A DNA stretch of 32,000 nucleotides from Ktedonobacterales bacterium (GCA_030167145.1 CP126532.1:3750001-3782000); one strand, 5' to 3'. Positions 3,558 through 22,282 are shown, counted from the first letter of the stretch. Numbers and translations are program-made. The notes: generated from the sequence alone by a model not told the origin.

Positions 3558-3758
3558 GAGCGATTTCCCCCCCGCACAACTTCCCGACACTCCCACCAGG
3601 GGGCCATCGTCGTATGATTTGCCGCGTGCGGCGTGCGAGTCTATGAGCCGCGCGCCCGCCAGGATTGCCCGTGGGCACGTGCCCTGAGCGCGAAAACGAA
3701 CGAGCAGCGCGAGTACGGCGAGGCTGGTGGCCCGATGGGCAGCGGCGCGAGCGGCGCG

Positions 3759-5242: not shown

Positions 5243-5931
5243 GCTCGTCTCCCCCACACCACTTCGCCCTGATAGGCGTGCCGCAATTCGCATCTACACG
5301 ATAATCTACTCCGCCAGCATGCTGAACGGCGGCCCCATGACGAGGATTCCACGGAGTTCGCCATGCGTAACACGGGTGGCGCCCGCGCTTCCCCATACGC
5401 ATTTCGGCTCACTCCTGTTGTTATACGCGACTTTTCGCCAGACTGCCAGACGCAATCTGTGGCGCAGAGCGCGGAAACGCGCGGAGATCTCGCGCGGATG
5501 CCGCCCGCCCGCTGCCGCCTCTGCCGGGAATCTATCGCGAGGCGATGCAAACAAATGCGTAGCGTATTGCACCATAGAGGGAAACGGATAGCTTGTTCGG
5601 AGGTAACTTCCTGGGTACGGGTGGGCGTGAGCGCATGTGCGCTGTGTGCGATGAGCGCCGCGTCGCGCGGACCATGGCGCATGGAATGGTTGTGGTGTGC
5701 CTTGTGCGCCTCGCGGCCATCAATGTCTATCACTGGCTGGCATTTACGAGATGAGGCGGAAGCTGTGTCGCGCCACGAGCAGACTATGACCAAGTGGCAT
5801 CCTACAGTGCCGAATACTACTCTCTTGTCACAGCAAGTGGTAGCGCGAGAATGTGGCCAAATATCAAGCCCAGCATTATGGTTGCTCGCAGGTCGTAATG
5901 GCGCTGTTTAGCGGATTTTGTGTGATGACGC

Positions 5932-5961
5932 TTGCATTTTGGATGGTGTTTCCTGTACACT
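5932..5961 (+). promoter_or_regulatory. Possible sigma-70-like promoter for the large membrane-protein gene
   Basis: TTGCAT (5932-5937), an 18-nt spacer, then TACACT (5956-5961), about 60 nt upstream of the proposed GTG start. Pattern match only. Confidence 0.25.
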
Positions 5962-6019
5962 CATTTCCAATCACACAGGGGTATCACCGTGTGCTCCTAC
6001 AAGTGAGAGGAGAGAGGCA

Positions 6020-9000
6020 GTGGCGGAGTCGAGCGACTACAGTACACCTGGCGCTGGCAGTGCGCCCGCAGCACCCGCCATGCCCGCAGCGCCTGTCGCG
6101 AGCGCACCTATTACAAGCTACGCGGCTGGTGAAGAGCACGAGGGGCTGGCCGCTACCTTTCTGCGGCGGCGCATTCAGCTTGGCACGCTCGACCGTTCGA
6201 TGCGGCTGCTGATCCTACTGGCGACCACCATGTTCGGGTTGCTCGCCCTCGTTCTGATTATCGGTGTGCCCTCGATCCAGTTGATTACGCTGGTCATCGG
6301 TGGCGCGCTGGCGCTCGGCTGGAGCTTCCTGCTGGCGGGCGCGCTGTATGCGACGTGGCCGTTCCGCTTCGCCATTGTCGCGCTGCTTACGGTCACGCTC
6401 GGCTATGCGCCGCTGAGATGGCTTCTTGCCAATGGCTTCGCTGACCCCGCCTCACGGCTGCTGCGTTTCGCGGAACTGGGGATCGTGGTGGGCATCTGGC
6501 TGTGGGCTATTGGGATGTCGGTGTTCGGATGGCTGCGCCGCCGCCGGCCCGCAGTGTCGTTTCGAGCTGGCCTGACGTTTGGCGCGGTGCTGACGCTGAT
6601 GCTGGGTTTTCTGGAAATCGAATTGACCCTCGCTCATGGCGCGCTCTTCACCGGCAGCGATACCATTCGCTTCCAGTTGACGCAGTTGGGCAGCCTGATT
6701 CTCATCTTTCTGGTGTGGGCGAGCACTGATCTGGTCGAATGGAGCTTCGCCACCGCCAACACCGCTATTGGACTGATGCGACGCCGCACAGGGATCCCCA
6801 TCTTGCCGCCAGTGGCGACGGCTGGCGCGCTGGTGATGTTGGTACTGACGGTTCACCAAATACAAACCGGTTCCTATCGCATCAGTTGGATGGCATTGCT
6901 GGTGGATCTGGTCATTGTGGCGTTGCTGGCGCTGGGGCTCTGGCTGTTGCTGCGCTGGGTGCGGATCGAGCGCGCGACTCCGGCGCAGGCGCCCGCGCTG
7001 GCGCTGATCTGCGGCGCGGTGATCATCGAGGGCGTGCCGCTGCTGGAGATCGCGCTGCAACGCGGCTGGTATGAGCGCTTTTCCGCTGATACACTCTCGG
7101 TCAGCCGGTCGGCGGTGGAATGGCTGATCAATCAGGTGTTTCTTCTGCTGCTGTTGCCGGTGGGGTTGGCGCTGCTGGCTGTTGGGCGCTCGCGGCGCAG
7201 GAGTTCCGCTGTGGTGTGGGGCGTGATGCTCGTCGTGCTGGCGCTCTCGCAGATTGTGATGAACCTCAGCGTGTATCTCGTCGCGCTGGGCTTGCCGCTG
7301 ATCTATGTGCCCGACCCGGTGGATCGAAACATACTCAAGATTGCGACCGCCATTGCCATACTCGTGCTGTCGCTGGCGCTCGTCGTCCGGCAGCGCTGGA
7401 CCCCCGCCAGCCAGCGGCTCCTGGCCGCGCTCAGCGTGTTCCTCATCAGTCTTCAGATTTTCGATTGGCTCATTACGCTCGCCTACCAGTTTCAGTTGCT
7501 GCAAGTACGCATTGCGTTGTTTGGCGCGGTGGCGTTTCTGGCGACCATCGTTTGGGATTTCATCATGTCTGGCGAAGAGATTACCAACCAGGCGAGCCGC
7601 CGCCTGCCGCGTGAGGCGCGCGTCTTCCTCTATCTCGGCTACACCTTGATCGCCGCGGTGGCAATCGTGTACTTCTCGCTGGGCAGTGCGGTGTCGCGGA
7701 ACATCTTTTCGCTTGAGCAACTGCTCGCTTCGCTTATCGGGTGGTATCAACTTGGTGTGCCGTTGATTGTGGTGTTGCTGATTCTGTTGCTGATGCGCGC
7801 CCGCGAGCCGCTGCCAATGCCAGAGGTTCCGCGATCACCGCGGCGCGAGCGCCTGGCGTGGTGGGGCGCACTGGGCGCGAGTGGCGCTATGGTCGCGCTG
7901 GTCGCGGTGCTCATCATTGCCGGATTAGCGCCGCGCCTGTCGCATCTCTCGTATCGCTCGCCCTCCGCCGGTTGCGAGGGCAACAACTATGCGCTCTGGC
8001 TCACCAGCAACGCCAGCGTGGGCGAGCGGTGCGGCTTGCACAGCATGACGCTGACCTTTGGGAAGGGTTTTAGCGGTATGACGATGCAGGTGCCACATCG
8101 CTTTCCCGCGAACTTCGATCTCTCCGTGCGTGCGGACCTCACGCACATTGGTGATGACGATTGTTTGTTCATTGTGGATTATGCCGTGCCGTCAGGCGCG
8201 TATGTATACGATGCCATCATCCCGACTACGCAGCAGCAGGACACCTACTTGTATGGCGTGTGCGCCAGTGGCGCCGTCGAAATCGTCCGCGAGGACCAGA
8301 CTGCCGGAAGCACAGCGCCGGCAATTGTGACGCTCGCCAATGGCGTCATCGCTACGCCGGTGACGCAGGTCGCCCTGCATGTACACTCGCAAGGCTGGTT
8401 TCGCACGTTCGACATCAACGGCACACAACTGAACACCAGTGATGATGTGTATCTCGGCACGAATATGCTGGCGCTGGCCGCGAACCGGAGCCAGCAGACG
8501 CCAGGGTCGGTGGCTTTCAGCAATTTCGTTTTCACGCCGCTGGATCCGCTGCCTGAGCAGTCGCCGCCAGCGCCGCCGCCGGGTTTCCGCACGTATGTCT
8601 CGTCCAATACGGTCTGGTCTATTGGCTATCCTGAAGAGGCGGATATTGCGAAGAACACGCTTACCGCGCAGGGCATCACCGCGCAGACGGTGCAGTTCGC
8701 GATGGTTGGGGTGGATGACGCCGCCCTGACCGTGTATGACATTCCGCAGGTCATCGCCAGCGACCAGGCGCAGGGCATTGCTAGTTCGCTGATTCAGGCG
8801 TTCGGCGCGACCGATGTGCGCTATACACAGTCGTGGACGCCCGTTACCTATGCGGGGCTGGGATGGCAGCGGCTGACCATGACCGCGACGGTTGGCGGTG
8901 AGCAGTTCAAGATCGTCGTGCTGTATCACGTCCATGGGGCGCGTTCAATCGTGCTGGGCGCGGCGGCGCCGATTGACCAGTACGCGGGCTACGATACGTC

Positions 9001-9043
9001 TGATTTCACGCCGATGGTCAATACGTTCGCATTTCTCTCGTGA
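6020..9043 (+). CDS. Large polytopic membrane protein (more than 15 predicted helices) with a 368-aa C-terminal extracytoplasmic region: a ConA/LamG-like beta-sandwich plus a PsbP/DUF1795-like alpha/beta domain. Function unknown.
   Basis: ORF 5918..9043. I prefer the in-frame GTG at 6020-6022 because GAGAGGAGAGAGG lies immediately upstream. Hydrophobic segments recur up to about nt 7930. The tail (7937-9040) is hydrophilic, with a beta-rich segment (FDLSVRADL...CLFIVDY...GSVAFSNFVFTPL), a PPAPPP linker, and a segment ending TPMVNTFAFLS. Fold names are my impression from sequence patterns. Confidence 0.7.
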   Translation: MAESSDYSTPGAGSAPAAPAMPAAPVASAPITSYAAGEEHEGLAATFLRRRIQLGTLDRSMRLLILLATTMFGLLALVLIIGVPSIQLITLVIGGALALGWSFLLAGALYATWPFRFAIVALLTVTLGYAPLRWLLANGFADPASRLLRFAELGIVVGIWLWAIGMSVFGWLRRRRPAVSFRAGLTFGAVLTLMLGFLEIELTLAHGALFTGSDTIRFQLTQLGSLILIFLVWASTDLVEWSFATANTAIGLMRRRTGIPILPPVATAGALVMLVLTVHQIQTGSYRISWMALLVDLVIVALLALGLWLLLRWVRIERATPAQAPALALICGAVIIEGVPLLEIALQRGWYERFSADTLSVSRSAVEWLINQVFLLLLLPVGLALLAVGRSRRRSSAVVWGVMLVVLALSQIVMNLSVYLVALGLPLIYVPDPVDRNILKIATAIAILVLSLALVVRQRWTPASQRLLAALSVFLISLQIFDWLITLAYQFQLLQVRIALFGAVAFLATIVWDFIMSGEEITNQASRRLPREARVFLYLGYTLIAAVAIVYFSLGSAVSRNIFSLEQLLASLIGWYQLGVPLIVVLLILLLMRAREPLPMPEVPRSPRRERLAWWGALGASGAMVALVAVLIIAGLAPRLSHLSYRSPSAGCEGNNYALWLTSNASVGERCGLHSMTLTFGKGFSGMTMQVPHRFPANFDLSVRADLTHIGDDDCLFIVDYAVPSGAYVYDAIIPTTQQQDTYLYGVCASGAVEIVREDQTAGSTAPAIVTLANGVIATPVTQVALHVHSQGWFRTFDINGTQLNTSDDVYLGTNMLALAANRSQQTPGSVAFSNFVFTPLDPLPEQSPPAPPPGFRTYVSSNTVWSIGYPEEADIAKNTLTAQGITAQTVQFAMVGVDDAALTVYDIPQVIASDQAQGIASSLIQAFGATDVRYTQSWTPVTYAGLGWQRLTMTATVGGEQFKIVVLYHVHGARSIVLGAAAPIDQYAGYDTSDFTPMVNTFAFLS

Positions 9044-9951: not shown

Positions 9952-11118
9952 TTAGCTGGCGACGGGCGCGCCCTGCATCGCGGTGATCAGCACGCGGGCG
10001 ACTTCGGGGCGGCTGAACTCCGGCGGGGGCGTCTGGCCGGCGCGGAGCATGGTGCGAACGGCGGTTCCGCTGAGAATCACATGGCTCTCTGCGCCATGGG
10101 GGCAGGTCTTGGTGGAGGCCATGCTGCCGCAGGTCTTGCAGAAGAACGAGTGCTCGAAGAAGAGCGGGGTGATGCCCAGCTTGTCGCGGTCGAATTCGGA
10201 GAAGATCTCTTGCGCGGCGTAGGTGCCGTAGAAGTTGCCGACGCCGGCGTGGTCGCGCCCGACGATGAAGTGGGTGCAGCCGTAGTTCTTGCGTACCAGC
10301 GCGTGGAAGATGGCCTCGCGCGGGCCAGCGTAGCGCATGCGCGCGGGGAAGGTGCCGAGCAGCACGCGGTTCGCCGGATAGTAGTTTTCGAGCAAGACCT
10401 GATAGCATTGCATGCGCACATCGGCGGGCACGTCGTCTTCTTTGGTCTCGCCAACGAGCGGATGCAGGAAGAGACCTTCGACGATTTCCATCGCGCATTT
10501 CTGGATGTATTCGTGCGCGCGGTGAACGGGGTTGCGCGTTTGGAAGCCGACGATGGTTTTCCAGCCACGCGCCGCGAAGGCCGCACGAGCCAGCATCGGG
10601 CTGGCGGGGAACTCTGGGAACGGCCCCAGCGTCGGCGGCGTCAGCAGCCAGATCGGCCCACCCAGCAGCACGTCGCCCTGCTCGTTCAGCGCGCGGACGC
10701 CGGGATGGCTGGTGTCTTCGGTGCGGTAGACCATCTGCGCTTCGTGGGCTTTGTCGTAGGTGAATTTCTCATGCAGTTCCAGCAGGGCGCGGTCGTTGCC
10801 GTCGCTATCGCGCAGCACGACGGTCGTGCCTTCCTTCAGCCCGTCCGCCACTTCGCTGGAGACGGCCAGGGTGATGGGCAGCGACCAGGGCAGCCCGCTG
10901 GCCAGGTGCATGGTATCCACTACGGAGCGGTAGTCCTGGCTGGTCATGAAGCCGGCCAATGGGCTGAACGCGCCGACGGCGATCAGGTCGAGGTCCAGAA
11001 ATACCCGACGTCCGACGGTCAGCGAGGGCAGGCTTGTGACCACCTCAGACCAATTTTGCACGTCTTCTGTCGGCATAACACGGTTGATCAGAGCGCCACC
11101 GTGCGGCTGCGCTGTCAT
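9952..11118 (-). CDS. sat: Sulfate adenylyltransferase (ATP sulfurylase)
   Basis: 388 aa. Signature motifs [14 protein letters not shown] and [20 protein letters not shown] lies upstream of the ATG at 11116-11118. Confidence 0.95.
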
Positions 11119-11195
11119 AGGTTGTTCCTCTCCACATAGATAAAGTGTTTCGGCGGTGGCTGGCAGAGTTGGTGGCTGCCGTGCCGCCGCAGGCG

Positions 11196-11462
11196 TCAGT
11201 TCGCGGTGATGCGTGGGCCGCGCGGCAACGGAGATGGCGACGACATCGGTAGGCCCAGATGGCCGAGATAGGCGCGGGTCCAGGGATCGAACAGACTCGT
11301 GTCGAGGCTGGGATCGAGCTGCCCAACGAGATCGGCCAGCGCGCTGACATGGCGCTGGCGCTCGTCGTCGGTGCGCGATCCCGCGATAGCCCAGACGAGA
11401 TTGGTGACGAACTGGCGTTCAAGCGCCGCGCGTGGTGACTCGAATCGGTTCGATCTGTTCAT
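11196..11462 (-). CDS. Small hypothetical protein (88 aa) inside the sulfate-activation operon
   Basis: The ORF sits in the gap between AlkP paralog 2 (33 nt upstream) and sat (77 nt downstream) on the same strand. GGGGAAGG lies about 9 nt before the ATG. I recognise no motif. Confidence 0.5.
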
Positions 11463-11495
11463 AGCGGCCAGCCTTCCCCGCAGCGTCGCAGGATG

Positions 11496-12869
11496 TCATG
11501 CGCTAATGACTAGCGCGCCGTCCAGCCCGTCTGGCTGGGGCACGCGCATCAGATTGTAGACGGCGGGCACGACGTCTTCCATCGTGAGGGTGGACTTGAC
11601 GATGTCGTGGCCGGAGACGTAGAGCAGGGCGTCGTCGAAGGTGTGCTCGCCGATGAGCACATCGCCCTTATAGGTCAGATGTTCACGGTCCATCGCGCCC
11701 TTGAAGGCGTAGCCCGTGGTGGGCGAGATCACCAGGTCCGGCGCGTTCTGATAGTTTTCGCCGTGGTAGATCTCTTCGCGTTTGTAGACGCGCTGGACCA
11801 TCTTTTCGCCGGTGTCGGGGTCGCGCAGTTCCAGCAGTTCGTCGCTGAGCTGCTGGCGCACGCGCTCGTAGTCCGCGCCCGGCTCGACGCTGCCGCGCGG
11901 CTCGCGTCCGCGCAGATTGATGAAGACGCGACCGGGGTCCATGCTATAGGCGCGGGTGGCGGGAGTGATGCTGGCGATGCTCGGCGGCTTGCCGGGCGCT
12001 GGCTCGGTGGAGAGCCAGCCGTTCTCGCGCAGCCACGTGTTCAGGTAGACTTCTTTGCGGACGGTGCAGAAGCCGTGGTCGGAGAGAATCACCAGCGTCG
12101 TGTTCTCATCCACGCGCTCCCAGACCTGGCCGAGAATCGTGTCCACCTTTTCGTAGAAGTCGTAGAACTGCGGCGCCCAATAGGGGTCGTTGTTCTCCAT
12201 GTACTCCCAGAAGAAGTGGTGCAGCCGGTCGGTCTCCATGATGTGCGACATGAAGAAGTCCCACGGCTCGCTATCCATTAGCTCGAACATCACCGCTGCG
12301 CGGCGCTCCAGCACGTGGTGCAGTTCTTTCATGAAGTCGTCTTTGTTGCGGCGGGCGATAGCGGCGTCGGCGTCAATCTTGTAGCCCATCTGCTGCAAGC
12401 GCCCGGCAAGCTCCTTGGGATAGGTGGCTTTCTCCAGGCTGGGCGAAAGGAAGCACGAGACCATCAGCCCGTTAACCTGCCGTGGGGGGTAGGTCACGGG
12501 GACGTTCATCACCACGACTTCCTTGCCCGCCTTGCTCAGTTCGCACCAGATTGGCTCGCGCTTCATGGTGCTGCTGTTGGGCAGGAAGACATCGTAGGTG
12601 TTGAGACGGCGATCCACGAAGCCATAGATGTTGTGCTTGCCGGGATTACAGCCGGTCATGAAGGATGACCACGCGACCGACGAGACGAACGGCCACGAGG
12701 AGTTCAGCGGGCGCACCGTGCCCGCCTGAAAGATACGCGCTAGATTGGGCATGCGCCCTTCGGCGATCTGGCGCATCGCGAAGCTATAGGGCACGCCGTC
12801 AATGCCGATAGCCAGCACCCTGCGCGCTCCACCACCTGGCGCGGATTGGCGCCGCGCAAACCACTGCAT
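11496..12869 (-). CDS. Alkaline-phosphatase-superfamily enzyme, type I phosphodiesterase/nucleotide pyrophosphatase-like (paralog 2)
   Basis: 457 aa. VLAIGIDGVPYSF, PFVSSVAWSSFMTGCNPGKHN, METDRLHHFFW and LVILSDHGF are colinear with paralogs 1 and 3. No signal peptide. Confidence 0.88.
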   Translation of the reverse strand: MQWFARRQSAPGGGARRVLAIGIDGVPYSFAMRQIAEGRMPNLARIFQAGTVRPLNSSWPFVSSVAWSSFMTGCNPGKHNIYGFVDRRLNTYDVFLPNSSTMKREPIWCELSKAGKEVVVMNVPVTYPPRQVNGLMVSCFLSPSLEKATYPKELAGRLQQMGYKIDADAAIARRNKDDFMKELHHVLERRAAVMFELMDSEPWDFFMSHIMETDRLHHFFWEYMENNDPYWAPQFYDFYEKVDTILGQVWERVDENTTLVILSDHGFCTVRKEVYLNTWLRENGWLSTEPAPGKPPSIASITPATRAYSMDPGRVFINLRGREPRGSVEPGADYERVRQQLSDELLELRDPDTGEKMVQRVYKREEIYHGENYQNAPDLVISPTTGYAFKGAMDREHLTYKGDVLIGEHTFDDALLYVSGHDIVKSTLTMEDVVPAVYNLMRVPQPDGLDGALVISA

Positions 12870-13007
12870 TGTCTTCTACCCCTTCTTCGCGAGGCCCAAA
12901 CCCTGCGCGTCCGCGATGTCTGTGGGATGCGGCCAGCGTACCGTGAGGGCATCGCGCTAGCCGCACAATGTTACCAGGCCAAGCTGAGTTTTAGCTTAGC
13001 GTTCGCG

Positions 13008-13673
13008 CTACATATAGCCCAGGTCTTCGAGCCGCTTGGAGACTTCGGCCTCTTCCTCTTCGGAGTAGGCGCTTGAAGAGGACGGCGCGCTGGAGACCGG
13101 CACGGCCACCGCTACGGGCGCTGGCTCTGGCGCGGCTTTGGGCGCGGGCGTGAGGTAGCCATGCGCTTCGAGCCAACTGACGATGTCGCCCGCACTTTCC
13201 TCTGGTGTGCGCCCCTCGGTCTGCACGACGATCTCCGCGCTGGCTGGCGGCTCGTAGGGATCGGAGACGCCGGTGAACGAAGGAATCTCGCCAGAGATTG
13301 CCTTCTTGTAGAGGCCCTTCACGTCGCGCCGCGCGCACTCTTCGAGCGAGGTGGCGATATAGACTTCGACGAAGGCGGGGATGTTGGCCCGCACCTGCTC
13401 GCGCGCCTGGCGATAGGGCGAGATGGCGGTGGCGATGGCGACGACATCGTTGCGCGTGAGCACTTCGCAGACCCAGCCGATACGCAGAATGTTCGTATCG
13501 CGGTCTTCGCGGCTGAAGCCGAGACCTTTGCTCAGGTGGGTGCGCACTACGTCGCCATCCAGCATCTCAACCTTGTTACCGCGCTCGCGGATGGTCTGCT
13601 CGACGATCTCGCCGATGGTTGTTTTGCCCGCGCCCGAAAGGCCGGTGAACCAGAGTGTGAAACCACGACTCAT
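13008..13673 (-). CDS. cysC: Adenylylsulfate (APS) kinase with a 49-aa Pro/Ala/Ser-rich and acidic C-terminal extension
   Basis: The true start is the internal ATG at 13671-13673 (MSRGFTLWFTGLSGAGKTTIG, a P-loop). LDGDVVRTHL and FSREDRDTNILRIG are typical APS kinase motifs. The first 136 aa of track ORF 13008..14081 are Arg-rich and overlap the upstream AlkP gene, so I discard them. Confidence 0.93.
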   Translation of the reverse strand: MSRGFTLWFTGLSGAGKTTIGEIVEQTIRERGNKVEMLDGDVVRTHLSKGLGFSREDRDTNILRIGWVCEVLTRNDVVAIATAISPYRQAREQVRANIPAFVEVYIATSLEECARRDVKGLYKKAISGEIPSFTGVSDPYEPPASAEIVVQTEGRTPEESAGDIVSWLEAHGYLTPAPKAAPEPAPVAVAVPVSSAPSSSSAYSEEEEAEVSKRLEDLGYM

Positions 13674-13718
13674 ACCCAATGAACCTGCTTTCCGCACCAA
13701 AAAACTACAGGAGAACGC

Positions 13719-13734
13719 TGTGGCACGCGCCACA
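13719..13734. other. Short intercistronic hairpin between AlkP paralog 3 and cysC
   Basis: TGTGGC (13719-13724), loop ACGC, then GCCACA (13729-13734). A T6 run follows 14 nt downstream on the minus strand (complement of the A-run at 13699-13704). Function unknown. Confidence 0.3.
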
Positions 13735-13753
13735 CTTTTGCGGACCTTAGACG

Positions 13754-15175
13754 TTAGCCGATATGGACGCCCGCGGGAATGGGCACCGCGTGCTGGATCG
13801 GCGTGCCGCGCATATCGGCTGGCACGGGCACATCCAGCGCTTCGAGAATCGTCGGCGCGACATCCATCAGGTGGCGCGGGGCCACCTCGCCGCGCTGGGT
13901 CAGCCGGGCGTCGCGCATGATGACCATGCCGAACTGCGCGTGGTTGGCGTCGTCGGGGCCGGTGTCGTTCTCGAAGGTGTAGATCGAGCCGTTGCCGACC
14001 GTGCCGACGGAGCGCCAAAGCAGATCGCCGAAGAGCACGATCAGGTCGGGCGCGATGTTCTTCACTTCGCGATACGTCCACTCCGGCTTGGCGACGCGCG
14101 TGCCCATGGGCCGCCCGGAGTCATCGGGCAGCGCTTGCAGCTTCGCGGTGAGTTCGGCGCGCAGGCTGTCGTACTCTTCGGGCGCGACGCAGCCGCTCGG
14201 CTCGCGCCCGCGCACGTTCAAGAAGACGCGGGCGTAGTAGCCGCCCGCGCCCCAGGCGCGGGTGCGCTCCCAGTCAATCTCGCACTGGTTGAGGTTGACG
14301 ATCCCCTCGGGGCGGCTCTTGAGCACGAGATAGCCCTCGCGGATCAGCCAATCGTTGATGCAGATGCCGCCGTCCATGCGTTTCGCGCCGTGGTCGGAGA
14401 CGATCATGACGGTCGTTTCGTCGCCGACGCGCGAGAGCAGGCTGGCGATCTGCCCATCCAGGTAGCGATAGTATTCGCGGATGGAGTGCAGGAACGGCGT
14501 CGGCCCCGGATGCTTGCGGTGCTGGGGGTCCATGTACTTCCACAGGCCGTGGTGGATGCGGTCGGTGCCCATCTCGACGAACATGAAGAAGTCCCACGGC
14601 TTGGCGTCCATCAGATGGCGCACCAGCTTGAAGCGGCGGTCGGTCATTTGATAGATCTGCTGCAAGAGATAGTCGGTATTCTCGGTGCGGAAGTCTTTCA
14701 CGTCGAACATGTAGTCGGGTACGACGCTCAGCACTTCCTCGCGCAGTTCCGGCGGATAGGTGAACTGGCTCTTCAGCCCTGGGGTGAGGAAGCACGTCAC
14801 CATCTCGCCGTTCACCTGGCGTGGTGGATAAGTGCAGGGGATGCCGACCACCGTGGAGTGTTTATCGTGCTGCCCCAGCACGTCGTAGACGACCGGCTCT
14901 TTGATGTAGGTGCTGTTGGCGACCGCTGTCTCTTTATAGTTATGCTCAAGACGGTTACGGAAGCCGTAAATGCCGAGTTGTCCGGGGTCTTTGCTGGTGA
15001 GCATAGACATCCACGCGGGCACCGTAATCGGCGGCATGCAGCTTTCGAGCCGCGCGTAGATCCCCTCATCCATCAGCTTCGCGAAGGTGGGCAACTGCTC
15101 GCGCCACTGGTCGAAGACCAGTTCAGGCGCGGCGCAGTCCAGCCCGATGACCAGCACCCGCCGCTTCTTTTCCAT
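13754..15175 (-). CDS. Alkaline-phosphatase-superfamily enzyme, type I phosphodiesterase/nucleotide pyrophosphatase-like (paralog 3, divergent active-site motifs)
   Basis: ORF 13754..15202. I prefer the ATG at 15173-15175 (MEKKRRVLVIGLDC). Motifs PPITVPAWMSMLTSKDPGQLG, MGTDRIHHGLW and VMIVSDHGA. No signal peptide. Confidence 0.88.
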   Translation of the reverse strand: MEKKRRVLVIGLDCAAPELVFDQWREQLPTFAKLMDEGIYARLESCMPPITVPAWMSMLTSKDPGQLGIYGFRNRLEHNYKETAVANSTYIKEPVVYDVLGQHDKHSTVVGIPCTYPPRQVNGEMVTCFLTPGLKSQFTYPPELREEVLSVVPDYMFDVKDFRTENTDYLLQQIYQMTDRRFKLVRHLMDAKPWDFFMFVEMGTDRIHHGLWKYMDPQHRKHPGPTPFLHSIREYYRYLDGQIASLLSRVGDETTVMIVSDHGAKRMDGGICINDWLIREGYLVLKSRPEGIVNLNQCEIDWERTRAWGAGGYYARVFLNVRGREPSGCVAPEEYDSLRAELTAKLQALPDDSGRPMGTRVAKPEWTYREVKNIAPDLIVLFGDLLWRSVGTVGNGSIYTFENDTGPDDANHAQFGMVIMRDARLTQRGEVAPRHLMDVAPTILEALDVPVPADMRGTPIQHAVPIPAGVHIG

Positions 15176-15217
15176 AACCCGTCTCTTTCGCTCTCGATGC
15201 ACTCAGCCGCCCAAGCC

Positions 15218-15315
15218 GGGCGTCCACCGGACGCCCCTACGCGGGGTGATGCGTCCGTCCGGGGGACGCCCCTACGCGGGGTGATGCGTCCGTCCGGGGG
15301 ACGCCCCTACGCGGG
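15218..15315. repeat. Hairpin followed by about 2.5 tandem copies of a 35-bp GC-rich, self-complementary unit, between the TauE and AlkP-3 genes
   Basis: GGGCGTCC (15218-15225), loop ACC, then GGACGCCC (15229-15236). The unit GGACGCCCCTACGCGGGGTGATGCGTCCGTCCGGG occurs at 15229-15263 and identically at 15264-15298, with a 17-bp partial copy at 15299-15315. Each unit contains GGACGC...GCGTCC and CCCC...GGGG inverted pairs. Confidence 0.95.
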
Positions 15316-15379
15316 TCGGCTTATCGCTTACAACACCTGACGATAACACCCGATAACACTTGATTATGCCCAAAGACAT

Positions 15380-16183
15380 CTAGATAATCGCCAGCAATCG
15401 CAGCGCGGAGAGCAACAGCACCCCTGCTACGGCTGGCCGCAACACGATCTCCGGCACCACCTTGCTCATGCGGCTGCCGACGAGCACGCCGGGAATTGAG
15501 CCGATGAGCAGTTGCCCGACGATGGGAAAGGCGACATCGCCCAGTGTCCAGTGCGCCGCCGCCGCCGCGGCGGAGAGCAGACATCCCTGGAGCACATCGG
15601 TGCCGACGCGCCGGCTCATCTTCCATCTTGGATAAACGAGGAGCAAGGCAATCATAACAAGGCTCCCGCCACCTACGGATGTAAGTCCTACAAGGAAGCC
15701 GACGATAGCGCCGATGACGATCAAAATTGGCGTGCGAAAGCGCCGCAGCACCTCCAATCGCGCAAAGAAGACGTTCGGGCGATCTTCCGGCCAGAGCCGG
15801 TTGCGAATGAAGGGCTGGGCGACGAGCAGCACCGCGACGATGATGAGCATCGCGCCGACGGCATGAGCCACCAGATCTTCTACATCTACGCCGGGTATGT
15901 GACGCAGATGCGCGATCAGCCCGACGCCCAGGATGGATGCGGGGACGCTGCCGAGCGAGAGCCGTATGCTGGTCCACACTTTGATCTGCGTCTGGCGCAG
16001 ATGTTGGAGCGCGCCCACGGCCTTGGTGACAGTGGCATAAGCCAAGTCGGTGCCCACGGCGAGCGTCGGTTTCACGCCTAACAGCAGCACCAGGATCGGC
16101 GTCATCAGCGAGCCGCCGCCCATGCCGGTTAGCCCGACCAGCATGCCCACGAGTAGCCCGGTGAAAATGAACCGCGCGTCCAT
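15380..16183 (-). CDS. TauE/SafE (TSUP, DUF81) family anion permease
   Basis: 267 aa with roughly eight hydrophobic helices. The GLTGMGGGSLMTPILVLLLG motif is repeated in the second half as GLTSVGGGSLVMIALLLV. A strong GGAGGAGG SD precedes the ATG at 16181-16183. Confidence 0.88.
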   Translation of the reverse strand: MDARFIFTGLLVGMLVGLTGMGGGSLMTPILVLLLGVKPTLAVGTDLAYATVTKAVGALQHLRQTQIKVWTSIRLSLGSVPASILGVGLIAHLRHIPGVDVEDLVAHAVGAMLIIVAVLLVAQPFIRNRLWPEDRPNVFFARLEVLRRFRTPILIVIGAIVGFLVGLTSVGGGSLVMIALLLVYPRWKMSRRVGTDVLQGCLLSAAAAAAHWTLGDVAFPIVGQLLIGSIPGVLVGSRMSKVVPEIVLRPAVAGVLLLSALRLLAII

Positions 16184-16689: not shown

Positions 16690-16845
16690 ACATCCAGGCG
16701 CTTTCCTTATGTGGATCACTGCACATGCAGTGGTGGATGCGAGTCGCTGAGTTGATGCCCTGCCGTATCGTGCGTCTTGAGCAGGCTATCATCGGGCTAT
16801 CATAGCGAGAACATGCGGGGTGGCAATGGGCAGGAGGTGGCAGGC

Positions 16846-18048
16846 ATGAGCGCCCTGGACCTATCAGTTGTGCTTCCCGTCTATAACGAGGAAGCGAACA
16901 TTGCGCGGCTGCACGCCGAGGTGAAGAGCGCGCTCGATGCGCTGGGCATGCGCTACGAAATCGTGTATGTGGACGATGGCAGCAAAGACCGCAGCTACGA
17001 GAAGTTGGCCGAGTTGGCCCAGGGCGATCCCAGTGTCTCGGTGATTCGCCTGCGCCGCAACTTTGGCCAGACCGCCGCTATCTCCGCTGGTATCGAACGC
17101 GCGGCTGGCGAGATCATCGTGCTGATGGACGCGGACTTGCAGAACGACCCACGTGACATCCAGCGCCTGCTCGACAAGATGAATGAGGGCTACGATGTGG
17201 TGAGCGGCTGGCGCAAACGCCGCAAAGATAAGTGGCTGACCCGCAAGCTGCCCTCGAAGATGGCGAACGGCCTGATCTCGCGGGTGACGGGCGTGCGCCT
17301 GCATGATTACGGCTGCACGCTGAAAGCCTATCGCCGTGAGGTGATGGAGTCGGTGCGCCTGTATGGCGAGATGCATCGCTTCATTCCAGTCTACGCGGAT
17401 TGGGCGGGCGGTCGCATCGCCGAGATTCCGGTGAACCATCGCAAGCGCGTCGCGGGCAAGTCGAAGTACGGGCTGCGCCGCATTCTGCGCGTGCCGCTGG
17501 ATCTGATCACGGTCAAGTTTCTGGGCACGTATTCCACGAAGCCGCTCTACATGTTTGGCTTTGTGGGCATGTTCCTGGTTCTGCTGGCCTTTGTTTCAGA
17601 GGGCGTGGCCATCACCGAGCGCTTCATACCGCCATACGTTCACCTCAATGCCAACCCGCTGACGCTGCTCGGCGCGATTCTTGTGGTGTTGGCGGTTCAG
17701 GTGGTGATGATGGGCCTTTTGGCCGAACTCATCATGCGGACTTATTATGAGTCGCAGAACAAGCCAACCTACATCATTCGCTCGGTCATCGTCGGCAATG
17801 CCAATGGCCCGCATCCGGTGATTGAGCTATCGCCACGGCCAGCCGGGCGCCGCCGCTATGACATCGGCTACGAAAGCGACGACCCCTATCTCGCATCGCT
17901 GCCGCATGCTGTGCCTGCGCCGGTGCCGCATCTGGAGCGCCAGCCGCAGGGATCGCCGAGCGAGCAGATTCTCGCTGCATCGGAGCCGATCCCAGGGATT
18001 ATCCCGACGGTTGTCCCGGCGGCCACCCCAGCCGACGCTCAACTCTGA
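16846..18048 (+). CDS. GT2-family polyprenol-phosphate glycosyltransferase (Dpm1/ArnC/GtrB-like) with two C-terminal TM helices and a Pro-rich tail
   Basis: I prefer the ATG at 16846 (MSALDLSVVLPVYNEEANI) with a GGAGGT SD 7 nt upstream, rather than the track start at 16777. Motifs YEIVYVDDGSKD and VLMDADLQNDP (DXD). Two hydrophobic helices follow the catalytic domain, as in GtrB/ArnC. The last 90 aa or so are low complexity. Confidence 0.88.
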   Translation: MSALDLSVVLPVYNEEANIARLHAEVKSALDALGMRYEIVYVDDGSKDRSYEKLAELAQGDPSVSVIRLRRNFGQTAAISAGIERAAGEIIVLMDADLQNDPRDIQRLLDKMNEGYDVVSGWRKRRKDKWLTRKLPSKMANGLISRVTGVRLHDYGCTLKAYRREVMESVRLYGEMHRFIPVYADWAGGRIAEIPVNHRKRVAGKSKYGLRRILRVPLDLITVKFLGTYSTKPLYMFGFVGMFLVLLAFVSEGVAITERFIPPYVHLNANPLTLLGAILVVLAVQVVMMGLLAELIMRTYYESQNKPTYIIRSVIVGNANGPHPVIELSPRPAGRRRYDIGYESDDPYLASLPHAVPAPVPHLERQPQGSPSEQILAASEPIPGIIPTVVPAATPADAQL

Positions 18049-18197: not shown

Positions 18198-19169
18198 ATG
18201 CGCTGTCTGGTGACGGGGGTCGCGGGCTTCGTGGGAAGCCATCTGGCGGAACGGCTGATCGCCGATGGGCACGATGTGCTGGGCGTAGACTGCTTCCTCG
18301 ACTATTATCCACGCGCGCTCAAAGAGGCCAACATCGCGGCGCTCCGGCGCTCGCCGCGCTTCCAGTTCATCGAAGCCGACCTGAACGCGAATCCGCTCGA
18401 TGAGCTGCTCTACGATATGGAGTGGGTGTTTCATCAGGCGGCGCAGGCTGGTGTGCGGGCAAGCTGGGGCACGAGCTTCGACATCTATACCGCCTCGAAC
18501 ATCAGCGCTACCCAGCGTCTGCTCGAAGCCGCGCTTACCGCGCCCAAATTGGCGCGTATCGTGTATGCCTCGTCGTCGTCGGTCTATGGCAATGCGGATG
18601 TGCTGCCGGTCACCGAGCAAACGCTCACGCGGCCGGTCTCGCCGTATGGGGTGAGTAAGCTTGCTGGCGAGCATCTCTGCGCGCTGTACTGGCAAAGCTA
18701 TCGTGTGCCGACTGTCGCGTTGCGCTACTTCACGGTGTACGGCCCGCGCCAGCGGCCAGATATGGCGTTCCACCGCTTCGGCAAGGCGATTCTCACTGGC
18801 GAGCCGATCACCGTCTACGGCGACGCCGCGCAGACGCGCGACTTCACCTACATTAGTGATGTGGTCGAGGCGAACATCCGCGCGGCCCAGACGCCTGATG
18901 TGGAGGGCATGGTCTTCAACATTGCTGGTGGCTCGCGGGTGGTGCTGCGTGAAGTGATCGAGACGCTGGCCACGCTTGCGGGCCGCGAGGCGCAGATAGA
19001 CTATCAGGAGACGGCGCGCGGCGATGTCCGCGATACCAGCGCCGACATCGCCCTGGCCCAGCGGCTGCTCGGCTATGCGCCGCAGGTGGCGCTGCGCGAC
19101 GGGTTGGAGCAGGAGTTGCGCTACCTTGAAGCGCTGTATCTCGCGCCTGTCCCCACGCCGGCGACATGA
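18198..19169 (+). CDS. NAD-dependent nucleotide-sugar epimerase/dehydratase (extended SDR; UDP-glucuronate or UDP-hexose 4-epimerase-like)
   Basis: 323 aa. Rossmann motif VTGVAGFVGSHL, catalytic YGVSKLAGE (YxxxK), and RYFTVYGPRQRPDMA, which is typical of this clade. AAGGAGAG SD lies 9 nt upstream. Confidence 0.9.
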   Translation: MRCLVTGVAGFVGSHLAERLIADGHDVLGVDCFLDYYPRALKEANIAALRRSPRFQFIEADLNANPLDELLYDMEWVFHQAAQAGVRASWGTSFDIYTASNISATQRLLEAALTAPKLARIVYASSSSVYGNADVLPVTEQTLTRPVSPYGVSKLAGEHLCALYWQSYRVPTVALRYFTVYGPRQRPDMAFHRFGKAILTGEPITVYGDAAQTRDFTYISDVVEANIRAAQTPDVEGMVFNIAGGSRVVLREVIETLATLAGREAQIDYQETARGDVRDTSADIALAQRLLGYAPQVALRDGLEQELRYLEALYLAPVPTPAT

Positions 19170-19556
19170 GGGAGCAGACGCATACCGCCGGAGGCCGCTG
19201 GTGGAGCGCCAGCGCGCTGGGCGGAGAAACGGTGATAGACTGATATCAAGGTCTGCCGGGCCGCTGTGGTGACGCGGTGCGCGTTTAGTAGGGGCGCAAT
19301 GGCGGCGACGGCGGACGCAGATGTCCAGCCTTTGTTCGATGTGGATGTAGTGTGTGGGAATAGGGAAAATGCTATGCGGCGCCGGAAAACAGTGATCTGC
19401 CGGTACAGATGTTGTGTCAATGCCGCAGTCTTGGTGGCCCTTTAGCCCCCTGTTTGACACCTTCCCGTGTATTCCTCGTTATAAACAAATGCCAGACCGT
19501 GCTGACTTCCCGTTCGCATGCTAAGACGACGAGAGCCAGATAGAGGAGGTTCCACC

Positions 19557-20756
19557 GTGACCGGTGAGCGCGACCAGACATCATCTCACTTCATCAACAA
19601 TTCCAGCCAGTATGTTCCGATGGATACGGTTACGACCCGGCGGGAGAACATTCCTGACGATTCGTTTCCTGATGACGGCGATCAGCCAACGCAGCAATTT
19701 CCGCGTTTTCGTCCGCAGGTTTCCTTGCCGCGCAGCCGTCGCGGCTTGCTGACACTTGGCGGCGTCATCTTCGCGCTGTTGCTGGTGGGGGTGCTTGTCG
19801 TGCCGAGGGTGCTGGGCAAGAAGACGCCGCACGTCACGCTCTACACGGTGCATACACAGCAACTTTCGGCGTATGTGGGTGGGGGCGGCCTCACATTTCC
19901 CAACCAGCAACTGAATATCGTCTTTCCCATCACCGCGCAGGTAGTGAAGGTGGACGTGCAGGTTGGGCAGAGTGTCAAGGTGGGCCAGGCGCTCGTCACC
20001 ATGGATAGCGCCGACCTCGACCGCCAACTCGCGCTGGCCTATTCGAGCTGGCAGAACGCGCAGAATTATGCCAACTCCGTCGCGGGGACCACGCAATACA
20101 ACTCTGCTATCACCCAGGCGGCCAACGCCAAAGCGGCCTATGACGCGCTCAACGCTTTCGTCAATTCGCCCACGTATCGCCATGGCAATCTGGTCGCGCC
20201 GTTCGCTGGTGTGGTGACGGCGCTGGGTGTGACGTCGAACTCTATCGCCAATGCTGGGGTGACGCTGGTCACGCTTCAGGATATCAGCAGCATGATCGTA
20301 CATGCGCAGTTCCCGCTGGAACAACGCAGCGCCGTAACGCTGGGCCAGACGGTAGAGGTGGACCCCGCCGCCACGCCCGATCAAAAGTTCAATGGCACTG
20401 TCAGTAACATTAATCCGGTGCTGACCAGTCCCGGCAGCGATACGTTTGAGGTCTGGATTACCGTGCCGAATCCCAACCAGTTGCTCTTCACCAGCGAAAG
20501 CGTGTACGCACGTGTGCTGACGCAGCAGAGTATGCCGGTGGTGCCGCAGCTTGCCGTCGTCAATCCTGACGCGGACTCCATTGTCTTCGTCTACTCCGGC
20601 GGCAAGGCGCACCTGCGCCATGTGGTCGTCGGCCCACGCAACGGCGACCAGTTCGGCATCGTGAATGGGCTGCAAGACGGCGATCAGGTGATCCTGATTG
20701 GTCAGTTCAACCTGAGCGATAACGAGCCGGTGGTTGTCTCGCGGGTGGAACAGTGA
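19557..20756 (+). CDS. HlyD/membrane-fusion-protein (periplasmic adaptor) family protein with an N-terminal TM anchor
   Basis: ORF 19518..20756. I prefer the GTG at 19557, 7 nt after GAGGAGG. TM segment GLLTLGGVIFALLLVGVLVV. Lipoyl-like hairpin halves VKVDVQVGQSVKVGQALVTMD and LVAPFAGVVTALGV flank a helical insert, followed by beta-barrel-like segments. Confidence 0.75.
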   Translation: MTGERDQTSSHFINNSSQYVPMDTVTTRRENIPDDSFPDDGDQPTQQFPRFRPQVSLPRSRRGLLTLGGVIFALLLVGVLVVPRVLGKKTPHVTLYTVHTQQLSAYVGGGGLTFPNQQLNIVFPITAQVVKVDVQVGQSVKVGQALVTMDSADLDRQLALAYSSWQNAQNYANSVAGTTQYNSAITQAANAKAAYDALNAFVNSPTYRHGNLVAPFAGVVTALGVTSNSIANAGVTLVTLQDISSMIVHAQFPLEQRSAVTLGQTVEVDPAATPDQKFNGTVSNINPVLTSPGSDTFEVWITVPNPNQLLFTSESVYARVLTQQSMPVVPQLAVVNPDADSIVFVYSGGKAHLRHVVVGPRNGDQFGIVNGLQDGDQVILIGQFNLSDNEPVVVSRVEQ

Positions 20757-22282
20757 GCGTAGCCCGCTGGAGGAGGGACCATCCAATGGCTGGCTCTACA
20801 TCCGATACGCGACCCAACGCCGGAGCGACTGGCGCGCCGCTGCCGCTGTTCTCGCCCGCTCTGCAGGAACGGCTCTGGTACTACGGCAAGCGCCTCTCTG
20901 GGTTCTTGCTGCGCGGCGGCATGATCTGGGCGATGCTCAGCATTCTTGGGTTGTTTGCCGCTTCCTATTCCCCCTGGATGGCGGTACCATTGATCCAGGT
21001 GTATCGCGGGTGGGATATTCCGATCAACCTGGGCTGGGGCGGTGTCATCCCGGCGATCAACTACGGCTCAGTATCGCTGGCGCTTGGCCTGGTCTTCCTG
21101 GTGCGCGCGGCGCTGGTCCCCTGGAAGCCGCTACGTCGGGGTTCTTTCGTGGTGATGGGCCTCGCCAGCTTTGGCGTGTTCGGCCTTTTTCTCTTCCAGT
21201 TCCTCTACGTTGACTTTCAATTTGTGTACCAGCTCTGGGAGCGTGAGAGCCGCTACCTCGTCATCAACAATCTGCTCGGCTACTCGATGCCTGCGCAGTA
21301 CTTCGCCTGGAATCCGTTCAGCTTCGACATGAACGGCGTCGGCGATCGCTGGAACCTCTTCCGCCAGCTTATCAATCCAGGCACATTGCTGCCGCTGGTG
21401 GCGGCGCTGTTGTGTTTCTTCGGCGCGGTGTTTGCGCCTACCAAGGCGGCGCTTCCGCAACGCGCGCTGATGCAGTATCCACGCTTCATCGAACGCCACC
21501 GGACGGCGTGGCGGCGCGGACTGGTGGGTGCGGCTATCGTGCTCGGCGCGCTGATTCTGGCGCGGCCCATCGTGGCGGTGCGGCTCTATTTCGATGCCCA
21601 ATCGGCCATCAAGGCGGGGAATTACCAGCCGGCGCTGGTGAATCTGAAGCGTGCGCGGCAGTTGTTGCCCACGCTCGACGCGCTCCCGGAATTCCACCAG
21701 TATCGTGGTGAGGCGCTGTATCAGCTTGGCCAGACACAGAACCTGGATGCGGGGCTGTATCTCGCCGCGCAGTACCGGGATTCTACCTCGTTGCAACAGG
21801 CGCTGCAAGAAGATAACATGCTGTATCAACGCTTCCCGAATTCGACGCTGGTGCGGCAAGACCTGGCGCTGACCCTGGAAATGCTCGCCAATCTCTACAC
21901 CAGTGTCAAGCTGCTGATTCCCGACAACGAGGCGCTGGCCACACAGCCGCAGCTTGCCGCGACGATCCAGATCCCGGCGACGGCCCTGCCCTGGCTGAAT
22001 CAATTGATCCAGATCGAGCCAGATAACGTGTACGGCTACTATCTGCGCGGGCGCATCCTCTTCTCGCAGCAGTCGTATGAGAATTCCGCTCACGACTTCG
22101 CCGAGGTCGTCAATCTCTCACACGACAAGGAAATGAAGTCCAGCGCCTATACGTACTGGGCATTCTGCGATGTCGGACGCAACAACATCGAAGGGGCACG
22201 CGCCCTGCTCTTCACAGCGGAGAAATTGGACGATGGCTACTTTAACACGACCGCCCGAGAAGCGCTCTCCGGCCTCCACTAG
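20753..22282 (+). CDS. Membrane protein (about 5 TM helices) with a C-terminal TPR-like helical-repeat domain
   Basis: The GTG start at 20753 overlaps the adaptor stop (GTGA) and GGTGGA lies 4 nt upstream, implying translational coupling. Hydrophobic helices fill the first 270 aa or so. The C-terminal half has TPR-like strings (YRGEALYQLGQ, YYLRGRILFSQQSYENSAHDFAEVVNL). Confidence 0.65.
   Translation: MSVARWRRDHPMAGSTSDTRPNAGATGAPLPLFSPALQERLWYYGKRLSGFLLRGGMIWAMLSILGLFAASYSPWMAVPLIQVYRGWDIPINLGWGGVIPAINYGSVSLALGLVFLVRAALVPWKPLRRGSFVVMGLASFGVFGLFLFQFLYVDFQFVYQLWERESRYLVINNLLGYSMPAQYFAWNPFSFDMNGVGDRWNLFRQLINPGTLLPLVAALLCFFGAVFAPTKAALPQRALMQYPRFIERHRTAWRRGLVGAAIVLGALILARPIVAVRLYFDAQSAIKAGNYQPALVNLKRARQLLPTLDALPEFHQYRGEALYQLGQTQNLDAGLYLAAQYRDSTSLQQALQEDNMLYQRFPNSTLVRQDLALTLEMLANLYTSVKLLIPDNEALATQPQLAATIQIPATALPWLNQLIQIEPDNVYGYYLRGRILFSQQSYENSAHDFAEVVNLSHDKEMKSSAYTYWAFCDVGRNNIEGARALLFTAEKLDDGYFNTTAREALSGLH

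Follow-up and report, generated by a model that had tools for sequence, protein, structure and literature searches.

An operon interleaving ATP sulfurylase and APS kinase with AlkP-fold proteins points to a possible class of PAPS-dependent sulfotransferases for envelope glycans

A 32-kb stretch of DNA from a Ktedonobacterales bacterium (GCA_030167145.1, CP126532.1:3750001-3782000; ~62% G+C; hereafter the window) carries at positions 9952-16183 an operon in which ATP sulfurylase (Sat) and CysC, a kinase for adenosine 5'-phosphosulfate (APS), are interleaved with two proteins of the alkaline phosphatase (AlkP) fold, AlkP1 and AlkP2. The question raised by this locus is which protein uses the 3'-phosphoadenosine 5'-phosphosulfate (PAPS) that Sat and CysC would make. 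We assign a probability of about one half to the answer that AlkP1, AlkP2 and a third paralogue in the window, AlkP3, are PAPS-dependent AlkP-fold sulfotransferases acting on envelope glycoconjugates.

Gene calls tiled the window fully, and every gene was scanned against family profiles. The nearest relatives of the window's proteins were found in Ktedonobacterales (Chloroflexota). Open reading frames (ORFs) and gene calls agreed on an operon of six minus-strand genes, all in one direction and separated, in the order TauE, AlkP1, CysC, AlkP2, orf88 and Sat, by gaps of 204, 80, 138, 33 and 77 nt:

15380-16183, minus strand: anion permease of the TauE/TSUP family, opening the operon (PF01925, E = 4.9e-45)
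13754-15175, minus strand: AlkP1, PF01663 enzyme with a Thr nucleophile in P-x-ITVPAW (PF01663, E = 4.7e-44); the gene call gives 473 residues and the longest ORF extends to 15202
13008-13673, minus strand: CysC, APS kinase (PF01583, E = 9.4e-48; P-loop GLSGAGKTT)
13011-13067, minus strand: conserved C-terminal tail of CysC, YSEEEEAEVSKRLEDLGYM (from the translation)
11496-12869, minus strand: AlkP2, PF01663 enzyme with a Ser nucleophile in P-x-VSSVAWS (PF01663, E = 3.9e-50)
11196-11462, minus strand: orf88, small protein encoded between AlkP2 and Sat
9952-11118, minus strand: Sat, ATP sulfurylase with PUA_2 and ATP-sulfurylase domains (PF14306, 3e-51, and PF01747, 1e-97)

An earlier description of this DNA, made without database searches (the sequence-only reading), had proposed the six-gene operon with these gaps, and its family assignments (PF01925, PF01663 twice, PF01583, and PF14306 with PF01747) agreed with the profile scans. 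The motifs that it quoted for Sat and the GLSGAGKTT of CysC are present in the translations. Sat scored 564 bits against NF003166 (cut-off 387) and contains the HxxH and GRDHAG motifs, confirming a sulfate adenylyltransferase, and CysC was confirmed as an adenylyl-sulfate kinase by TIGR00455 (166.9 bits, cut-off 138.7). On motifs and profile matches together, the two form a PAPS synthesis pair. In the scans of the 32 kb, no gene matched a sulfotransferase, PAPS reductase, sulfite reductase or CysQ family, bearing out what had been claimed for PAPS reductase, CysQ and sulfotransferase. Specifically, no window protein belonged to the canonical sulfotransferase families (PF00685, PF03567, PF13469 and Stf0) or to the inositol monophosphatase family (PF00459) of the CysQ-type phosphatases acting on 3'-phosphoadenosine 5'-phosphate (PAP).

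The proteins encoded where a PAPS consumer would be expected are AlkP-fold enzymes. AlkP1 and AlkP2 are paralogues with 35% identity over 384 residues (E = 1e-63), and AlkP1, AlkP2 and AlkP3 scored 151.8, 171.8 and 129.5 bits, respectively, against PF01663 (cut-off 23). AlkP2 retains the conserved residues D24, S63/S64, D214, H218, D264, H265 and H409, and AlkP1 the motifs IGLDC, ITvPAW, G.DRiHH, SDHG and NDtGPDdaNH; within each of the two subfamilies, conservation reaches 95% or more for the ligands of the two-metal site of PF01663 and for the Ser/Thr nucleophile. The first core beta-strand, holding a metal-binding Asp, begins within ~17-20 residues of the N-terminus in AlkP1 and AlkP2, too near to it for a signal peptide, and both are predicted to be cytoplasmic. 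The sequence-only reading was therefore right about paralogy, intact ligands and nucleophile, and missing signal peptides; it placed both paralogues correctly in the operon but overlooked the third, AlkP3 (1-1574). AlkP1 and AlkP2 look, by sequence, like active cytoplasmic metalloenzymes far from anything characterized. The NCBIfam scan matched no equivalog to the AlkP proteins, and of the nearest folds in the PDB, given below, phosphonoacetate hydrolase (PhnA) alone was also returned by sequence (E = 1e-3). The family comprises 3,668 clusters at 50% identity (E = 1e-30 or better).

The surroundings of the nucleophile set these proteins apart from two better known groups. In nucleotide pyrophosphatases/phosphodiesterases (NPPs), an Asn three residues past the nucleophile (T-x-P-N) binds a phosphoryl oxygen. 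AlkP1 and AlkP2 have Ala at this position and, right after it, a Trp that does not vary ([ST]-x-x-A-W); the same A-W follows the nucleophile in the AlkP3-type consensus. Nor do they belong to the formylglycine sulfatases: the C/S-x-P-x-R motif is absent, the position reading T-V-P-A-W or S-S-V-A-W, and scores against PF00884 were 19.5 bits for AlkP1 and 28.6 for AlkP3, the latter marginally over the cut-off of 25, with no match for AlkP2. Could the AlkPs be metal-dependent, formylglycine-independent sulfatases that free sulfate for re-activation by Sat and CysC, in salvage or glycan remodelling? The weak similarity to PF00884 and SGSH_C, a sulfatase-type spacing around the nucleophile ([ST]-x-x-x-x-(4 residues)-T-G) and the cytoplasmic location beside sulfate-handling genes would fit such a role. 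We regard it as very improbable, however, given the lacking formylglycine motif, the absence of any gain for free sulfate from the fusions and tethering described below, and biosynthetic glycan neighbors (glycosyltransferases, Wzx and Wzy) that point to synthesis and not to degradation.

To survey the neighborhoods, we scanned one genome per GTDB species and obtained 80 loci with relatives of AlkP2. CysC was encoded directly upstream of AlkP2 in 45 of the 80. Gene order was counted in the 49 loci having at least 4.5 kb of upstream sequence: CysC was found in 26, AlkP1 in 27 and Sat in 23, and 22 contained all three upstream in the order Sat-AlkP1-CysC-AlkP2. The loci with the module come from Ktedonobacterales, Anaerolineae, Chloroflexia, Ardenticatenales, Roseiflexaceae, KSB1 and a metagenome-assembled genome (MAG) labelled Cytophagia, and in the AlkP2 tree the CysC-linked members are scattered throughout, deep branches included. 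The sequence-only reading had named in advance the loss of the sat/cysC/PF01663 linkage in related genomes as the outcome that would speak against it; the linkage is retained, in order, across several phyla and in gene fusions.

These natural fusions join the partners and so reinforce the coupling of Sat and CysC to the AlkPs. Sat is fused to AlkP1 in proteins of 832-840 residues from several clusters (P0173, P0182, P0215 and P0233), and AlkP1 to CysC in proteins of 705-728 residues (P0137), one of them a single uninterrupted 728-residue ORF in locus L002. A tandem AlkP-AlkP fusion has 1104 residues. Either paralogue can also stand alone with the two synthesis genes: AlkP2 in the arrangement Sat-CysC-AlkP2 (L030, L065, L072 and L076), and AlkP1, without AlkP2, in the arrangement AlkP1-CysC-Sat, in which CysC bears the tail (L093; contig_9414, ERZ25039523). 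The L093 module is followed by genes for a GHMP kinase, an SIS isomerase and a short-chain dehydrogenase/reductase (SDR), heptose-type nucleotide-sugar genes, and an inositol-1-phosphate synthase gene lies ahead of it.

The Sat+AlkP1 fusions suggest a different role as well, since some eukaryotes have fusions of ATP sulfurylase and pyrophosphatase, which they recall. The AlkPs might be helpers of PAPS synthesis, turning PAP into AMP in place of CysQ, splitting pyrophosphate (PPi) into 2 Pi, or hydrolyzing APS or PAPS to keep the pool in check, with the actual PAPS consumer, a sulfotransferase or PAPS reductase, encoded elsewhere. The fold is one of phosphoester and pyrophosphate hydrolases, the window has no CysQ-type gene, and an active site rich in conserved Arg (R87, R130, R190, R215, R314 and R322) would suit small polyanions; the isolation of the module among housekeeping genes in most Anaerolineae, to which we return below, also favors a helper. 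Two sets of observations tell against it. One is internal to the modules: two or three paralogues per genome are hard to square with a clean-up role, and a PAP phosphatase would have no obvious need to be tethered to the APS kinase. The other comes from loci in which the AlkPs occur among glycan genes, described below. Weighing both, we consider the helper role unlikely, though it is the strongest of the rivals.

In the flanks of the modules no further partner emerged. Among 123 ORFs around the 45 modules, with families counted when matched by two or more ORFs, the top counts were response regulators (6) and TauE (5), and no partner family recurred apart from the module's own genes. These four therefore make up a module complete in itself, and the idea of a conserved acceptor-synthesis gene travelling with them was rejected on the same survey. 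Sulfotransferase, cysH and sir were not among the families matched by at least two of these flanking ORFs; a canonical cysH/sir set just outside the window, raised by the sequence-only reading as a possible full explanation of the operon, thus finds no counterpart among the recurrent families.

A second kind of link between CysC and the AlkPs is a short C-terminal peptide. CysC extends ~47 residues past the canonical APS-kinase domain, the NCBIfam APS-kinase profiles stopping at residue 157 of the 204-residue version of the protein, which lacks the first 17 residues of the 221-residue call. The extension consists of a Pro/Ala/Ser-rich linker and then YSEEEEAEVSKRLEDLGYM, and the consensus of the tail is Y[ST]xEEExx[VI]xxRLxxLGY[LIM]. 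The APS-kinase domain proper ends in a similar ...WLEAHGYL right ahead of the linker. In 41 of the 45 modules the tail forms the end of CysC; in three of the remaining four, CysC is tail-less and AlkP1 bears the tail, and in the last the contig begins at CysC. Where AlkP1-AlkP2 pairs occur without CysC, the tail is on AlkP1 (L058, L062 and P0184 of Brocadiaceae). It is also found on AlkP3-type paralogues (L002-L004, L047 and L092), and 117 of 120 haloarchaeal homologues, of ~540 residues, end in VExRLAxLGY[LI]E. None of 120 AlkP2 proteins has it, and in every inspected system one protein with the tail occurs alongside one or more AlkPs that lack it.

The presence of the tail on CysC in 41 of 45 modules implies a physical coupling of PAPS synthesis to the AlkP partner, and we infer that through the tail the kinase making PAPS is held to the enzyme consuming it. 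In an AlphaFold2 (AF2) monomer model of a tail-bearing haloarchaeal homologue, the tail helix has a predicted local distance difference test score (pLDDT) of 54-66 and is therefore not docked in cis; in the model, this is consistent with a docking motif acting in trans. Readings of the tail as an HbYX motif or a membrane anchor were set aside, given that 20S proteasomes are missing from most host phyla and that the tail is a strongly acidic peptide.

The nature of a possible acceptor is suggested by the glycan genes around the operon. In the window they are, together with AlkP3:

1-1574, minus strand: AlkP3, third PF01663 paralogue, C-terminus outside the window (PF01663, E = 2.9e-37)
1659-3596, minus strand: MOP/Wzx-type flippase (PF13440, E = 2.2e-48; NCBIfam MOP flippase and O-glycosylation flippase)
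16777-18048, plus strand: ArnC/PgfS-like family 2 glycosyltransferase (GT2; polyprenyl-phosphate sugar synthase), pointing away from the operon (PF00535, E = 1e-38)
18198-19169, plus strand: SDR nucleotide-sugar epimerase/dehydratase (PF01370, E = 4.6e-55)
22170-25475, plus strand: C-fold glycosyltransferase (GT-C), PMT_2/ArnT-like, with N-terminal carbohydrate-binding-like domains (PF13231, E = 1.8e-18)
25506-26804, plus strand: family 4 glycosyltransferase (GT4; PF00534 and PF13439)

The flippase, GT2, GT4, GT-C and epimerase that the sequence-only reading had described as a glycan-assembly island were thus all found flanking the operon, but the island itself is a feature of Ktedonobacterales. 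For the ArnC-like GT2, the top NCBIfam match was the undecaprenyl-phosphate 4-deoxy-4-formamido-L-arabinose (Ara4FN) transferase, at 234 bits and under its cut-off. AlkP3, 558 residues in the gene call, is encoded directly downstream of the flippase; the pair is kept in L002-L004, where AlkP3 has 56-74% identity and ends in ...IKERLxNLGYL. The neighboring SDR was considered as a UDP-sulfoquinovose synthase and rejected, scoring 38 bits against a cut-off of 575 with a match to the N-terminal Rossmann motif alone.

Beyond Ktedonobacterales, AlkP-fold proteins of this family recur among glycan genes. Glycan genes surround the operon and homologues in six phyla; together with the AlkP core fold, this is the combination known for the archaeal proteins Agl30 and Agl31 discussed below. 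Several such clusters lack sat and cysC: AlkP1 (with the tail), AlkP2, GT4 and two GT2 genes in Brocadiaceae; AlkP1, AlkP3 (with the tail) and GT4 in Acidobacteria; and an AlkP pair with GT2, Wzy_C and Wzx in Gaiellaceae and Thermoleophilia. A Proteobacteria MAG has an AlkP2-like gene with TauE and a WbaP-like initiating transferase. Sat and cysC are also gone from an Anaerolineae clade (L008-L018, L027 and L034) in which the genes run, in this order, SDR epimerase, AlkP2-like protein, 935-residue TMEM260/PMT_2 GT-C and WecA-like transferase. An SDR of the window's type adjoins AlkP2-like genes in 14 of the 80 loci, and in loci of this epimerase type the GT-C (TMEM260-like/PMT_2) comes after the AlkP2-like genes. 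In L034, a CysH-like PAPS reductase gene and two more AlkP paralogues of 550 residues adjoin the AlkP2-like cluster. Fusions within the family (P0361, P0453, P0492 and P0503) comprise AlkP-AlkP (1104 residues), AlkP-AlkP-TPR (1351), AlkP with an S-adenosylmethionine (SAM) methyltransferase (862) and a DUF2304 membrane domain with AlkP (709).

A tblastn search of 72,556 plasmids returned matches to AlkP1 and AlkP2 almost solely on haloarchaeal megaplasmids. On pHALXA01 of Halopiger xanaduensis (35317-54597; L088), an AlkP2-like gene, whose product has 37% identity to the window protein, adjoins a CysP-like sulfate permease (annotated as a phosphate transporter) and a gene of the CysD/PAPS-reductase family, in a glycosylation island that also holds three GT4s, two "sulfatase" genes and a 534-residue AlkP. 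The homologue in Natronorubrum adjoins DegT aminotransferase, GNAT and glmS genes, and GNAT and sugar phosphate isomerase/epimerase genes lie near that of Haloferax mediterranei.

These contexts are the second set of observations against helpers of PAPS synthesis: AlkP1-AlkP2 pairs without sat and cysC inside polysaccharide clusters of four other phyla, the pairing of AlkP2-like genes with SDR, GT-C and WecA-like genes, the fusions to a DUF2304 membrane domain, a methyltransferase and TPR, and the haloarchaeal homologues in glycosylation islands. The same contexts would suit phospho-group chemistry, in which polyprenyl-linked or nucleotide sugars would be the substrates of the AlkPs (as phosphatases, phosphodiesterases or phospho-substituent transferases) and sulfate activation would belong to a different step. 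Membership of PF01663, the NPP/PhnA-like fold and recurrent neighbors such as polyprenyl-phosphate sugar synthases, WecA-like proteins, GT-Cs and flippases all agree with this, as does the movement of phospho-groups by the superfamily transferases EptA and LtaS. It leaves unexplained, however, the linkage to CysC in 45 of 80 loci, the Sat and CysC fusions, the shared tail and the absence of another PAPS consumer from the window and from the recurrent flank families, and in these proteins Ala-Trp replaces the Asn by which NPPs bind the phosphoryl group. Phospho-group chemistry is, in our judgment, quite unlikely.

Comparison with known systems places the module between several of them. In rhizobia (nodPQ and nodH) and mycobacteria (cysNC and stf), PAPS synthesis is encoded together with a canonical sulfotransferase. 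The window resembles these in encoding ATP sulfurylase and APS kinase with a (proposed) PAPS user for an envelope or signal glycoconjugate. Their consumer is a P-loop-like sulfotransferase with 5'-phosphosulfate-binding (5'-PSB) and 3'-phosphate-binding (3'-PB) motifs (PF00685, PF03567 and PF13469), whereas the partners here have the two-metal AlkP fold and are linked to Sat and CysC by interleaved genes, by fusion or by a common tail. With the NPP/PhnA clade (PDB 1EI6, 2GSN and 4GTW) the window proteins share PF01663, the fold, the Asp/His metal ligands and a Ser/Thr nucleophile at a helix N-terminus; they differ in their predicted cytoplasmic location (NPPs are secreted or ecto-enzymes), in Ala-Trp for Asn, in a large inserted cap region at residues ~270-400 and in having sulfate-activating enzymes and glycan genes as genomic partners. 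The AlkP superfamily also includes phospho-group transferases that work through a covalent intermediate, EptA/MCR-1 for phosphoethanolamine and LtaS for glycerol phosphate. As in these, a metal-activated Thr/Ser is proposed to relay a charged group from an activated donor to an envelope glycoconjugate. EptA/MCR-1 and LtaS are membrane-anchored, periplasmic or extracellular, and take phospho-groups from lipid donors; the window AlkPs, predicted to be soluble proteins of the cytoplasm, would take a sulfuryl group from a nucleotide donor.

The only published precedent for a sulfotransferase of the AlkP superfamily is that of Agl30 (VNG1056C) and Agl31 (VNG1057C), described in 2025 as N-glycan sulfotransferases of Halobacterium salinarum and encoded as adjacent, sulfatase-like AlkP-superfamily paralogues (PMC11980604). 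Their deletion removes sulfate from N-glycan sugars and their expression sulfates the Haloferax glycan; one of them is soluble and cytoplasmic, and they act on the lipid-linked glycan before it is flipped (PMC11980604). Compared by published description, the window proteins share with them the AlkP-core superfamily, a non-canonical fold for a sulfotransferase and the occurrence of paralogues in a glycosylation cluster; sat and cysC are not described in the published Agl30/Agl31 cluster (PMC11980604). In the low-salt pathway of Haloferax volcanii (Agl5/6-Agl7-Agl15), a dolichol-phosphate (DolP)-linked hexose is sulfated before flipping, with Agl7 required (PMC3892788). Like this pathway and the other three-component systems modifying lipid-linked sugars, ArnC/ArnD/ArnE-F/ArnT and GtrA/GtrB/Gtr*, the window joins a GT2 and a cytoplasmic modifier to a flippase and a GT-C; sat and cysC genes are not reported for the ArnC-ArnT, Gtr and Hfx. 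volcanii low-salt clusters. Agl7 did not appear by name among the best 120 matches of a Haloferax homologue. Agl7 (HVO_2046) may itself be a PF01663/COG3379 protein.

Sulfation of envelope glycoconjugates is favored because two independent sets of associations converge on it, one with PAPS synthesis and the other with the assembly of lipid-linked sugars and polysaccharides. Among the roles entertained by the sequence-only reading, transfer of a sulfo group to a glycan or lipid-linked sugar is accordingly preferred to recycling of PAP, APS or PAPS, and the trimming of nucleotide sugars gained no specific support. In the mechanism that we propose, Sat and CysC would turn sulfate into PAPS in the cytoplasm, and AlkP1, AlkP2 and probably AlkP3 would consume it; judged from its family, the TauE/TSUP permease probably takes up the sulfate. 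A metal-activated Ser/Thr alkoxide would attack the sulfur of the phosphosulfate anhydride, PAP would leave, and the sulfuryl group of the resulting covalent sulfo-enzyme would move on to a sugar hydroxyl, in a ping-pong mechanism analogous to the phospho-group transfers by EptA/MCR-1 and LtaS. The acceptor in this genome would most likely be a polyprenyl-phosphate-linked sugar or a nascent envelope glycan; the ArnC-like GT2 would make it, and its export would fall to the Wzx-like flippase and its transfer to the PMT_2-type GT-C. The AlkP paralogues may sulfate different positions or acceptors, and the conserved C-terminal peptide of CysC would hold the kinase to an AlkP enzyme.

Several points weigh against PAPS-dependent sulfotransfer. 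At NPP-type sites, sulfuryl transfer is not known except as a weak, promiscuous hydrolysis. The AF2 model of AlkP2 (pLDDT 94) has an AlkP/NPP fold, and its nearest folds in the PDB, PhnA and NPP (TM-score ~0.6, 12-18% identity), are hydrolases. The Sat+AlkP1 fusions would equally suit a pyrophosphatase pulling the unfavorable sulfurylase reaction, and no docking of the tail was observed in the haloarchaeal monomer model. Most Anaerolineae modules stand alone amid unrelated housekeeping genes, and no acceptor pathway is evident in them for that reason. Finally, the precedent is an imperfect one: Agl30 and Agl31 are formylglycine-sulfatase-like (PF00884/S1, with sulfatases as best PDB matches) whereas the window proteins belong to PF01663, and the paper describing them does not address the sulfate donor, the term "PAPS" occurring 0 times (PMC11980604).

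A wider claim can be put forward tentatively. The uncharacterized cytoplasmic PF01663 family, with its 3,668 clusters in Bacteria and Archaea, may be an unrecognized class of PAPS-dependent sulfotransferases that act on envelope glycans or lipid-linked sugars via a covalent sulfo-Ser/Thr and, by way of ...RLxxLGY[LIM], come together with APS kinase and one another in a PAPS-channelling complex.

The remaining genes of the operon are of narrower distribution. TauE is kept at its operon position only in the Ktedonobacterales relatives L002, L004, L006 and L007, and adjoins an AlkP2-like gene in L075. For orf88, neither Pfam nor NCBIfam gave a family; homologues (41-45% identity), at the corresponding position, were limited to L004, L006 and L007 and were absent from L002 and L003, and orf88 is confined to the lineage. 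Scanned for promoters, terminators and Rfam elements, the operon yielded no signal above chance, intergenic terminators included, and no Rfam element. Elsewhere in the window, two plus-strand ORFs lie between a two-component system and the operon (5363-9043): one of 182 residues (5363-5911), followed by a protein of ~987-1041 residues for which many membrane helices are predicted, with a soluble region at the C-terminus (5918-9043). Neither matched a Pfam family, and both are possibly part of the glycan machinery. Between the genes for the epimerase and GT-C, the plus strand encodes an HlyD-type membrane-fusion-like protein and a 509-residue TPR protein (19518-22282). A minus-strand gene at 28950-31988 encodes a 1012-residue protein with a Ser/Thr kinase domain and a periplasmic ligand-binding domain (Peripla_BP_6/ANF receptor), probably unrelated to the operon finding.

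Sulfated glycans are reported from cyanobacterial and from biofilm or granular-sludge polymers, and recognizable sulfotransferase genes are often missing from prokaryotes that have sulfated glycans. They are known also from haloarchaeal N-glycans (PMC11980604 and PMC3892788). Full-text literature searches found no description linking PF01663, COG3379 or the "alkaline phosphatase family" to sat, cysC or sulfotransfer. The sequence-only reading had called the coupling of AlkP, sat and cysC undescribed; within these searches this still holds for the coupling, while an AlkP-superfamily sulfotransferase as such has its precedent in Agl30/Agl31 (PMC11980604). What we propose as new is the coupling of PAPS synthesis to glycan sulfation through a non-canonical AlkP-fold consumer and a tethering peptide. 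If the AlkPs were instead PAP or PPi hydrolases, the module would be a non-canonical substitute for CysQ or pyrophosphatase, tightly tied to PAPS synthesis. If they are sulfotransferases, thousands of genes annotated as "alkaline phosphatase family protein" or "nucleotide pyrophosphatase" would gain a function, sulfuryl transfer would have a new catalytic route in which a two-metal site works through a covalent intermediate, and Sat-AlkP-CysC-AlkP would be a compact, portable cassette for engineering glycan sulfation. The shared tail, as a docking peptide, would be a rare short linear motif organizing a bacterial metabolic complex.

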